Virus record (IMG/VR): IMGVR_UViG_646311923_000012
Length of the DNA stretch: 64,000 bases
Source of the DNA: a virus
Lineage: Duplodnaviria > Heunggongvirae > Uroviricota > Caudoviricetes
Reading direction: 5' to 3' (one strand)
In this document: positions 9,001 to 12,000 of the stretch, in pieces
Position numbering within the stretch: the stretch's first letter is position 1
How the letters are laid out: the number at the start of each line of letters is the position of its first letter
Position numbers: made by a program

Positions 9001-12000
9001 TTGGGGGAACGCCAAAGCTAAACCATTGCCAAACAGTCTGTTGAGCGACCCCCATATAACGACCTATTTCAGCCTGAGTGTATTTCTGCCTAATTTTTTC
9101 GCGAGTGCTATCTAGCATTTTGCCCTCCTCTAAAAACTATAAGCAAAGCCTACAATAAAAAACTGTATGCAATCAACAGTTTTTTATTGTGATGCTTTTA
9201 ACAGTATTTACCTGTAAAATTGAATAATGATGAGCGCCCTAGAAGTATCTATGTACAGAATCAGCAAGCTTCTTCAGGAAACTGGATGGAGCCAGGCTGA
9301 GCTTGCCCGTAGAATTGGTGTGACACAACAAACTGTTCAACAATGGGTCAGCGGTAAGGCTACACCTAAAGCCTCAAGTTTGGATAAACTGGTTGAGGTT
9401 TCAGGGCATCCATTGCATTGGTTTTTATTGCCTCCTGAAGAGTGTGAGCAAATTTTCACCCCTGACACGATGAAAATTGGTCCTCGCCAACGCGAACTGC
9501 TCCAAGCTTTTAGTGCGTTTCCTGAGGAAGACCAAGAAAAAATGCTTCAAGAAATCAAAGACAAGAAAAAATCAATGGAAGAAACCATTGCTAGGTGGCT
9601 GGCGGCACAAAAAAGCCGCCGGGCGTGACCACAGTACAAGAAGAGGAGTTATGCCATGGGTACAGCCCTTTCTCCGATAGTTTCAGAATTCGAAACTACC
9701 GAACAAGAAAACAGTTACAACGAATGGTTGCGCACTAAAGTAACGTCAAGCCTTGCAGACACTCGCCCCGCAATTCCACATGACGAGGTAATGGCTGAAA
9801 TGGAAAATCTTATTGCTCAAATTGCTGTAACTAACAAGAGCGAGTAATGTTACCCATTTTATGGCTACCGTCTGCTCGCGATGATTTGCGCCAGATCATA
9901 ACTTACATCGCCAAGGAGAACCCACCGGCAGCACGTAGACTAAAAATACGCATTGAAACATCGGTATTACCTCTATCTGAGCATCCGTACTTATATCCAC
10001 CAAGCGAACGGGTTTCTGGATTGAGAGAGATCGTGACCCACCCTAACTACATAATCCTGTACAGAGTAGCTGCTTCAAGCATTGAGATTGTAAGCGTGAC
10101 ACATTCTCGGCGACAATTTCCCTTCTCTATCTGAGTTGAACAATTTTCATACTCCCTCTTTCGAGGGATTTTTTTGCCCAAAACAACAATTAAAAACTGT
10201 TGACACAAAACAGTTTTTAATTGTAGATTACATAAACCAACCACCCACCCCGCCCCACAGAACGCCGGGCAATACTTCGAGTTACCAAGCAGTGGTCAGG
10301 GGGTAAGTAGCCAGCCCGAGGCGTATGAACATGACGGCAGGGTTCAACTTTAATAACTATGCAGCAGGTTTTTGTTCCGCTACCCGGCGTTAAGGGGAAA
10401 TGAGGTCAACATGGATACTATCGATCTTGGCAACAACGAATCTCTGGTGTACGGCGTGTTTCCCAACCAGGACGGTACATTCACCGCGATGACGTATACC
10501 AAAAGCAAAACGTTTAAAACCGAAAATGGTGCCCGTCGCTGGCTGGAAAGAAACTCAGGTGAGTGATATGGATTTCGACACAATCATGGAAAAGGCTTAC
10601 GAAGAATACTTCGAAGGCCTTGCCGAAGGCGAGGAAGCTCTCAGCTTCAGTGAGTTTAAACAGGCGCTTTCCAGTTCGGCAAAATCTAACGACTAACGGA
10701 GTTAAAGATGGAATTTAAAGATTTACTAAAAGAAATCCAGGAAATTGCAGCACATGCACTTCACCAACGTCTGAACGAAGTTGAATTAGAATCTGCAACG
10801 AAGAAATACATTGATAATATGGCTCGTAATGTGCGCGATGCGTTTACCGGATTGTACTCTGTTTCGGTAACAAACAACCAGAATACTGAAGAAACTGCAA
10901 AGCGGATTGCCTCGGTGATGGGTTTTCATGTCGAGGAAAAGTATTCAAAAAAAGAATTCTGGAAAACTACAAAAAAATTGCAGAGCGAGAACTGTCATCT
11001 CCTGCGGCAATCGCTTCTTTCTATGAGGAAAGTTATTCAGATGACACAGGATTACCGGAACTGCTCTCATTACTTGAAAAATTCGGAATTATCATGAAAG
11101 GGACTGCGTCGGCGGATTTCACATACTCAATGATGGCTGCTGATGGAGAGCCTTTTCCTCCCGAACTTAAAATAACCCCCGGCAATCATCCGATGGTAAC
11201 AATAAGAGCAATAGAGAATTACTGGTTTAATCCAGTTCAACAATAGTTGGTCTTTGCAATATTTTTAATGGGCCACTACGCCCTTAATCTCGGGCGGCGT
11301 TTAACTCTTTATTCAGTAAATCAGACTGATACTGATTTGGCTTTGTAATGATACTGTCAAGTTTTGATATATGAAATTCAACATGTTCTGGACAGTTAAA
11401 AATGTAATAACCGCCCTTCTCTAAAAAGCCAGAAAGAGCGTTACAGGCAGGGCATGGTTTGTTTGGCATTTTATCCTCCATTAAGGGCTGAATTAAAAAT
11501 GGAGACCAACACGCTGCTACGTGTGGTCGTGCGCCGGACACAGATAAGAATCCGGCACTGACAGTTTACTGAAAGGATATATCCCTGAAAAGTCAGGGCA
11601 TAACACGAAAGTGCACGGCGAAGTCCTTCTCCCTTAGAGCCGTCGTTAAATTTAATTCGACCGTGCGCTTCCGGTTGTGGCAATCCGCGAAATGGCGCGG
11701 CGGTAAGTATGGCGGGGTTATTCTTTCCCCGTTGAGGACACCGGGTTGTCAGGTTGACCATACGCTTAAGTGACAACCCCGCTGCAACGCCCTCTGTTAT
11801 CAATATTCTGGTGACATTTGGCGGTATCAGTTTTACTCCGTGACTGCTCTGCCGCCCTTTTTTAAAAGTGAATTTTGTGATGCGGTGAATGCGGCTCAGC
11901 GCACGCGGAACAGTTAAATCGGTAAAGCGGTCATTTGCTGAGTAACGAGAATGCTCTGTATCCGGCGTTAATTGTTAACTGGTTAACGTCACCTGGAGGC

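Follow-up and report, generated by a model that had tools for sequence, protein, structure and literature searches.

A predicted three-way-junction RNA in the early leaders of lambdoid prophages and T7-like phages

Introduction

RNA elements described at or near the start of transcripts include the nut site of phage lambda, a promoter-proximal RNA with boxA and boxB in the pL leader; the put RNA of phage HK022, two stem-loops of about 70 nucleotides (nt) directly after pL in a lambdoid phage without N; the boxB-boxA-boxC antiterminator of ribosomal RNA (rrn) leaders, which involves Nus factors and SuhB; and 5' mRNA stabilisers such as the ompA 5' stem-loop. Antitermination by put is factor-independent and proceeds via the beta' zinc-binding domain, for which a transcription assay has been described (PMC9378689). 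Here we analyse a leader sequence that occurs twice in a 64,000-nt stretch of Caudoviricetes DNA (IMG/VR record IMGVR_UViG_646311923_000012; hereafter the window), once in each of two heteroimmune prophages, A and B. The leader opens with a 5' domain that is predicted to fold as a three-way junction, and it ends in a short hairpin, the 3' module.

The element resembles each of these systems in part. Like lambda nut, it is a promoter-proximal RNA in a pL leader, and in Arsenophonus its 5' domain is directly trailed by a canonical boxA/boxB and an N-family gene. Unlike nut, the 5' domain has no boxA or boxB, measures about 110 nt and is a predicted three-way junction; the window prophages have neither a boxA nor an N gene downstream, and the loop of their hairpin is 8–9 nt, not a GNRA-like pentaloop. 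With put the element shares its place right after pL in N-less lambdoid phages, a size in the range of about 70–110 nt and conserved unpaired bases, but it is a three-way junction where put is a pair of stem-loops, it is absent from pR, and it co-occurs with N/nut and boxA. Covariance models of the element (R1 and R2) had no match in the HK022 immunity region, blastn returned no HK022 match, and putL, read from the genome, had no similarity to the element. The likeness to rrn leaders lies in the rrn-type hairpin and UGCUCUUUAACAAUCUGG found downstream in T7-like phages, Symbiopectobacterium and some Escherichia coli prophages; the domain itself, by contrast, is a separate upstream unit with no rrn counterpart, and the window copies have no boxA. 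The 5' stabilisers likewise give a long mRNA a structure at its 5' end or close to it, but they are simple hairpins free of sequence constraint, whereas the element has extensive invariant loops and a junction.

No Rfam 15 family covered the element at gathering thresholds in a scan of the window, and none matched in the T7-like leaders; at E ≤ 10 only noise was returned, the best match (E = 0.16) falling on an operator palindrome. A literature search found no description of the element, and by-eye inspection for ops, sigma-54 and IHF sites and for loop-loop pseudoknots found none consistent across homologs. The element belongs to the territory of nut, put and the rrn leader but lacks those of their defining features that were examined; sequence comparison marks it as a new family of early-leader RNA in phages.

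Results

Two copies of a conserved leader in the window

The first-pass annotation of the window had drawn attention to a leader of about 90% identity lying downstream of different operators in the two prophages, and both observations hold. In pairwise and scripted global alignments of 10244–10405 with 63781–63945, 149 of 168 columns were identical (89%), as against 62 of 108 (57%) over the 100 nt upstream and 26 of 58 (45%) over the 55 nt downstream, a similarity well above chance level. The conserved block begins 6–8 nt past the -10 hexamer in both copies. The operator of prophage A is a palindrome with 16-base-pair (bp) arms that overlaps the promoter (10186–10224; inverted-repeat scan), whereas that of prophage B consists of TTACAAAT/ATTTGTAA repeats. 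Each copy follows a predicted sigma-70 promoter of pL type on the plus strand. That of prophage A (10200–10229, TTGACA-18-TAGATT) matches the consensus at 10 of 12 positions and has the same spacing at homologous loci, and transcription of copy A probably starts at about 10236; that of prophage B (63742–63770, TTGACC-17-TAAATT) was read from the sequence and lies at the same distance from the element.

Covariance models R1 and R2, which were built from lambdoid sequences only, found exactly two copies of the 5' domain in the window, with E values of about 1e-23 to 1e-29. Both are on the plus strand: copy A at 10235–10346 (113 bits with R1, 108 bits with R2), where covariation also supports the assignment, and copy B at 63773–63884 (119 and 118 bits). 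Both copies have the full set of family features, namely the closing helix P0, the arm P1–P3 with its CA(A)NACNNNGAGUUA loop, AAGUAG, P4, and a host promoter directly before the domain. The block had been taken for a single cis-acting RNA of 165 nt. Its standing as an RNA under selection is borne out by the comparisons that follow, but as judged from the sequences the block is a composite of a 5' domain of ~110 nt and a short 3' hairpin module.

Predicted architecture of the 5' domain

The 5' domain is predicted to form a three-way junction of about 105–112 nt, in which helix P0 closes a long arm (P1–P3), a junction strand and a short arm (P4). In copy A, ACCC at 10243–10246 pairs with GGGU at 10340–10343 (both on the plus strand; model columns 9–12 with 106–109) to form P0, which covaries across lineages, and about 7 nt at the 5' end are left unpaired. 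The long arm P1-P2-P3-P3b spans 10247–10304 on the plus strand (columns 13–24/58–69 for P1–P2, 29–35/51–57 for P3 and 37–39/47–49 for P3b). It is capped by a conserved 15-nt apical loop, CAAUACUUCGAGUUA (CAAUACNNNGAGUUA as RNA), at 10270–10284 (+), which corresponds to invariant columns and is kept in T7-like phages. If P3b forms, the apical loop would be a 7-nt AC-NNN-GA, in which the three central bases vary freely between conserved flanks (10279–10284 in the window, and in all homologs).

The junction strand AAGUAGCC and the P4 arm (AGCC...GGC), with its 19-nt loop CGAGGCGUAUGAACAUGAC, follow at 10305–10338 (+). The core of the junction strand is AAGUAG, within a broader consensus (U)AAGUAG(C/U)C, and the P4 loop of the lambdoid group has the consensus YGAGGCNNNNGAACAUGAM. 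Among lambdoid-type homologs, columns 71–104 contain few variable positions (Y83, 89–92 and C/A101), although columns 77–99 were fixed by the search patterns, so that invariance there is partly built in. AAGUAG and the trailing GGC, which lie outside those patterns, are almost always kept, the exceptions being degenerate copies with AAUUAG or GGU. In all, 35–50 unpaired nucleotides are conserved across genera. The corresponding parts of copy B, also on the plus strand, are the arm at 63785–63841, the apical loop at 63808–63822, and the junction with P4 at 63843–63876.

An alternative pairing is available to the K-12 Rac type, whose C-rich 5' strand CCCGCC can pair with GGCGGG just past P4; this is the minimum-free-energy fold (z = -1.5). 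It competes with P1 and P4 and is not conserved in other lineages.

Helices covary and unpaired nucleotides are kept

We assessed the long arm in a gapless, structure-blind alignment of 29 lambdoid-type sequences of equal length (A4), anchored on the core only. Eighteen of the 22 arm pairs had changed on both sides, and 77.7% of cells were paired, compared with 66.1% in shuffled alignments. None of 500 shuffles reached the observed value on any of five measures, and in slid controls only 23–44% of cells could pair. When homologs were folded singly, the arm hairpin recurred in every one, despite the different stem sequences. Indels put the helices out of register in a plain MAFFT alignment that included Arsenophonus, and RNAalifold therefore recovered nothing from it but an invariant 3-bp hairpin; that alignment was replaced by A4 and by model-based alignments.

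P0 was assessed without an alignment. Native 5' and 3' partners formed longer helices than swapped ones, with 16 of 5000 partner-swap permutations reaching the native mean. Addition of P0 to the model raised the scores of T7-like sequences from 24–26 to 32–35 bits and those of distant members by 8–10 bits. In a model-fitted alignment, all seven P0 pairs were compensated and 81.8% of all cells paired, as against 56.5% in shuffles, counts that are biased upwards since such an alignment leans towards structure. The P0 strands differ from lineage to lineage: AACCC/GGGUU in the common E. coli type and AACAAC/GUUGUU in the second, CAGCAAC/GUUGCUG in Pectobacterium, CCAACC/GGUUGG in Symbiopectobacterium, CACCCC/GGGGUG in Winslowiella, UCACU/AGUGA in Arsenophonus and AAGCA/UGCUU in Superficieibacter. 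Across Escherichia, Arsenophonus, Serratia and Pectobacterium the stems have diverged, and the apical loop and AAGUAG are conserved. The invariant U39-G47 pair and other G-U pairs are possible only on the pL sense strand, indicating that the structure is that of the RNA read from pL and not a DNA palindrome or an antisense RNA.

The single-sequence folding energies of the window copies were no better than those of shuffled sequences (z = +0.7 to +1.1); the case for structure rests on covariation. The comparative sequence data show the 5' domain to be, by prediction, an autonomous 5'-terminal three-way-junction RNA. Covarying helices, together with unpaired nucleotides that are invariant across genera, support the core of the first-pass reading, in which the leader block is a selected RNA element and no recombination scar. 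The contrary view, that the block is a functionless stretch of homology left by neutral recombination, draws on its position at a module boundary and on its own mosaic make-up. Given compensatory changes in five helices, loops that are invariant across genera and the presence of the domain in virulent phages, we regard such an ordinary recombination junction as extremely improbable.

Distribution in prophages and position at the transcript start

The window itself is E. coli O157:H7 sequence. Of 5426 complete E. coli genomes searched with blastn, 4188 carry the block; it occurs at 8537 places in all, and a single genome can have up to 8 copies. In K-12, it lies unannotated in the Rac prophage between racR and ydaG. 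The Rho-dependent terminator trac of Rac lies within racR (PMC4150792), elsewhere than the element, and the multicopy prophage small RNA HnrS (EcOnc10-12) of enterohaemorrhagic E. coli, which is encoded among late genes (PMC13502914), is unrelated to it. When viral contigs and one genome for each GTDB species were scanned for the pattern, copies came up in Escherichia, Shigella, Arsenophonus (many), Phlomobacter, Serratia, Symbiopectobacterium, Pectobacterium, Winslowiella and Superficieibacter. Pattern matches in high-GC Actinomycetota and similar genomes were discarded as chance, the rest of the element being absent. Three records with unexpected hosts carry leaders near-identical to E. coli prophage types over the element: a Nanosynbacter metagenome-assembled genome (MAG) has the Rac type, a Collinsella MAG the common E. 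coli type, and Actinobacillus phage vB_Apl-pPE4 the second E. coli subtype. The host labels or MAG binning of these records may be wrong.

The gene order is constant: an opposite-strand cro-like gene, a cI-like repressor, sometimes a moron, the promoter, the element, and then early-left genes that include ydfA, kil and that for exodeoxyribonuclease VIII. In nearly all loci, the promoter-like site stops 1–7 nt ahead of the domain. The start of P0 within 1–7 nt of the inferred 5' end in all lineages would suit a 5'-terminal stabiliser that protects the early polycistronic mRNA from decay by RppH and RNase E, and the arm, being irregular and about 20 bp long, is similar to the substrates of RNase III, as expected if the domain were processed by that enzyme. 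A stabiliser needs no invariant loops, however, and 35–50 unpaired nucleotides are conserved across genera; nor does the stretch of about 7 unpaired nt at the 5' end of copy A fit well. A role in stabilisation or RNase III processing is, in our estimate, unlikely.

Homologs in virulent T7-like phages

A looser scan (GAGTTATC...AAGTAGCC), in which the P4 loop was not required, returned mostly chance matches, yet it exposed a homolog in a T7-like phage. In Klebsiella phage kpssk3 (a KP32-like Przondovirus), the domain lies at 233–348, directly after the first early promoter for host polymerase and upstream of the second promoter, an rrn-type boxA (UGCUCUUUAACAAUAUGG) and an ocr homologue. A blastn search with the kpssk3 copy matched 404 phage records, among them Klebsiella (330), Escherichia (22), Salmonella (12), Erwinia (9), Dickeya (6), Yersinia (4) and Pectobacterium (4) phages. 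We examined nine T7-like leaders (kpssk3, Kvp1, FE44, LPST144, ETEP21B, pEp_SNUABM_12, JA10, KpV289 and phiW14), of which seven scored E = 6e-7 to 3e-4 with R1 and 5e-6 to 4e-5 with R2; KpV289 and phiW14 were weak. The T7-like carriers span Przondovirus, Berlinvirus and Ningirsuvirus. In ETEP21B, the annotated promoter is at 314–342 and the model match begins at 345.

Compensatory changes recur within this group, in P3 (UACCAGA/UCUGGUA, CACUAGA/UCUAGUG, GGAAGA/UCUUCC and AACCGGA/UCUGGUU), in P4 (UCAACC/GGUUGA versus UCAAGC/GCUUGA) and in P0 (CGUUGAG/CUCAACG versus AUCGAG/CUCGAU). In these leaders, the domain overlaps the next early promoter: the 3' strands of P4 and P0 extend over its -35 hexamer and spacer. 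As a mobile module, the domain travels between temperate and virulent phage types together with a host promoter.

Phage T7 itself was not detected by R1 or R2 and aligned poorly, its A1 leader keeping only AAGUAGACAGCCUGA. At 252–266 of the T7 sequence analysed, within that leader, AAGTAGACAGCCTGA resembles the lambdoid junction and the start of P4. From these short similarities, the T7 A1 leader may be a degenerate relative.

The 3' module, boxA and N genes downstream of the domain

In copy A, the 5' domain is followed on the plus strand by a linker (10347–10373) that subtype comparison shows to be variable except for the conserved word GCAGCAGG (10361–10368), and then by the 3' module GUUCCGCUACCCGGCGUUAAGGGG (10374–10398), a predicted CCC/GGG hairpin with a loop of 8–9 nt; the hairpin itself occupies 10383–10397, with the loop GGCGUUAA(G). 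The module of copy B is GUUCCGCUACCCCGGCGUUAAGGGG (63910–63934, +), and the general pattern is GUUCCGCUACCC(C)GGCGUUAAGGGG. Across subtypes, the stem varies between CCC/GGG, CCG/CGG, GCC/GGC, GCCG/CGGC and GCCAG/CUGGC. The modelled secondary structure is no more than plausible, and the module could possibly form an H-type pseudoknot with CGCU/GGCG. In phage mEp460, the module occurs alone, a short leader running from the pL-type promoter straight into it and ydfA. The modules of Serratia and Winslowiella consist of GUUCUGACA and, after it, a stem-GAAAGA-stem hairpin, and look like the boxA/boxB of a nut site. The module at 10374–10398 would, on this evidence, be a separate nut-like hairpin unit attached to ydfA. 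An earlier suggestion that the conserved leader might be a nut-like site does not carry over to the 5' domain, which has no boxA/boxB; only the short 3' module is nut-like, and only in relatives. A terminator scan found no terminator-like site on the plus strand of 10236–10410.

In Arsenophonus, each copy of the domain is followed by a short open reading frame (ORF), a boxA (CGCUCUUUAACA), a boxB hairpin (UUCGCUGAAAAAGCGAA, with GAAAA) and a gene for an arginine-rich protein; these proteins match the Pfam family N_peptide (PF25694) with 40.6 bits for one copy and 21.7 for the other. Arsenophonus nilaparvatae (4700–7800 of the sequence analysed) and four further sequences have two tandem immunity regions about 1.9 kb apart, each with a repressor, a promoter, the element, a boxA, a boxB-like hairpin and an N-family gene. 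In Symbiopectobacterium, T7-like phages and some E. coli prophages, a hairpin and an rrn-type boxA lie 50–330 nt downstream of the domain. Some Qin-type E. coli prophages have the hairpin CCGGA...UCCGG and then TGCTCTTTAACAATCTGG just after ydfA, about 290–345 nt past AAGTAGCC. By their sequences, prophages without N may use boxA/Nus antitermination.

These downstream sequences also bear on whether the domain might be the aptamer of a ligand-sensing riboswitch or a self-cleaving ribozyme of a new class. A helix-closed three-way junction with a conserved junction and loops is typical of many aptamers and small ribozymes, but no conserved expression platform accompanies the domain, P0 being followed by a promoter in T7-like phages and elsewhere by boxA or the ydfA hairpin; nor did any Rfam riboswitch or ribozyme match. 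We consider this identity quite unlikely.

A short ORF in the P4 loop

A short ORF starts at an AUG in the P4 loop (10331–10333 in copy A), 9 nt past a Shine-Dalgarno-like GAGG, and varies in length from 4 to more than 41 codons. GAGG and AUG are present in all lambdoid-type copies, the AUG having been forced by the search patterns. Most T7-like phages have no GAGG and have GUG in place of AUG, which kpssk3 keeps. Across copies, peptide conservation is limited to a start of MTA or MKA. The variable length and residues of the ORF exclude a conserved peptide, which had been put forward as an alternative explanation of the leader. Translation of the ORF (MTA.../MKA...) might instead couple a ribosome to the polymerase or regulate a downstream nut site, and it is in keeping with such control that all lambdoid-type copies have GAGG and AUG and that the Arsenophonus ORF ends 9–10 nt before boxA. 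The range of lengths, the lack of conservation past three residues, the forced AUG, and the usual GUG and missing GAGG of the T7-like phages all speak against it, and we hold translational control by this ORF to be very unlikely.

The relation of the ORF to ydfA varies. The commonest subtype has an additional C, and there the ORF is in frame with ydfA and yields a 76-amino-acid (aa), N-terminally extended YdfA, a product that some annotators call (for example, coding sequence 2591–2827 of phage Tritos). In copy A, the ORF (10331–10393) stops ahead of ydfA.

Neighbouring genes in the window

The first gene of the prophage A operon is ydfA (DUF1391; 10411–10566, +; Pfam PF07151, E = 1.7e-28), with its Shine-Dalgarno sequence GAGG at 10402–10405. 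The first gene after copy B is a 118-aa ORF with no relation to ydfA. The operons downstream of the two copies had been described as different, which is true of these first genes; relatives of prophage B, however, keep ydfC- and dicB-like genes about 0.4–1.2 kb farther downstream. In prophage A, DicF lies at 11806–11857 (+; Rfam match) and dicB is next.

Upstream of copy A are a YdaS/Cro-like gene (8846–9118, -), a CI/PaaR2-like helix-turn-helix repressor (9227–9628; Pfam) and PaaA2 (PF21217) with ParE (PF05016) at 9656–10134 (Pfam). We take 9227–10134 to be a three-component toxin-antitoxin locus of the PaaR2-PaaA2-ParE2 type, which would occupy the rexAB position. The intrinsic terminator of this operon (10153–10175, +; terminator scan) lies outside the RNA. 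Just upstream of promoter B is a HigB toxin gene (63371–63673, -; PF09907, E = 5e-33), with a probable HigA antitoxin beside it (about 63150–63370, -). Other Rfam matches in the window are the sok antitoxin RNA (hok/sok), the small RNA STnc100 and three tRNA genes in a prophage; matches on the minus strand are at 2872–3046, 50009–50181 and 50954–51202.

Discussion

Since the loops of the 5' domain are kept across genera while every stem has been rewritten, we suggest that a conserved host component recognises it. The invariant unpaired nucleotides would form the surface by which a host factor is recognised, with RNA polymerase, a Nus factor and Rho among the candidates. Our tentative reading is that, by binding such a factor, the domain aids early elongation in cis through antitermination or anti-Rho activity. 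Acting as it emerges from polymerase, it would promote productive elongation through the untranslated leader and the early operon, alone or with the boxA/nut-like sequences that come after it in many lineages. This possibility fits the placement of the domain, which opens the first early transcript, stands ahead of long untranslated leaders and in many cases has boxA or nut downstream.

Several observations weigh against a cis-acting elongation aid. The domain is found alongside complete N/nut or boxA systems, next to which an antiterminator would be superfluous; T7-like phages carry it on only the first of three early promoters, and lambdoid phages at pL only; mEp460, a close relative, has the same operon but lacks the domain; no similarity to put is seen, by sequence or with the R1 and R2 models; the folding energies of the window copies do not exceed those of shuffled sequences in stability; and a search allowing up to two mismatches found no boxA near either window copy. 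The co-occurrence, the single promoter and mEp460 fit a trans-acting decoy almost as well. As the first RNA made once the phage infects or is induced, the domain could be cut loose from the leader, with RNase III and RNase E as possible enzymes, and titrate a host protein, with a defence sensor, a nuclease, Rho and an RNA chaperone as proposed targets. Its location in T7-like phages, on the first promoter to enter the cell and a short way upstream of an anti-restriction gene (ocr or SAM hydrolase), would suit such a sponge, as would its closed, autonomous form with invariant unpaired surfaces, its optional and modular occurrence among relatives, and its presence in temperate and virulent phages that are unrelated but have the same hosts. 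A decoy does not need the strict +1 position, however, and neither a terminator in the leader scan nor a mapped processing site bounds a free RNA. We regard a decoy as almost as likely as a cis-acting aid to early elongation, which we favour with low confidence.

More speculatively, the domain could represent a new class of phage RNA effector that binds a conserved host factor, with Rho, an RNase and an immune sensor as examples, and neutralises or reprogrammes it, an idea to which we attach a low probability. Temperate and virulent enterobacterial phages would then be swapping the domain as a cassette together with its promoter.

If our interpretation is correct, an undescribed structured RNA family lies in well-studied territory, in the pL leader of the K-12 Rac prophage and of O157 prophages, and also in the early leader of T7-like phages, including KP32-like Klebsiella phages. 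Unrelated temperate and virulent phages would have in common an RNA module that is directed at the host and opens their first transcript, and the domain would offer a directly testable way into the question of how early leaders that are long and untranslated evade Rho and RNases, or into RNA-based counter-defence. The element is present in about 70–77% of complete E. coli genomes, and its breadth, from most E. coli genomes, Rac and O157 to T7-like phages of Klebsiella, Salmonella and Erwinia, merits experimental follow-up.

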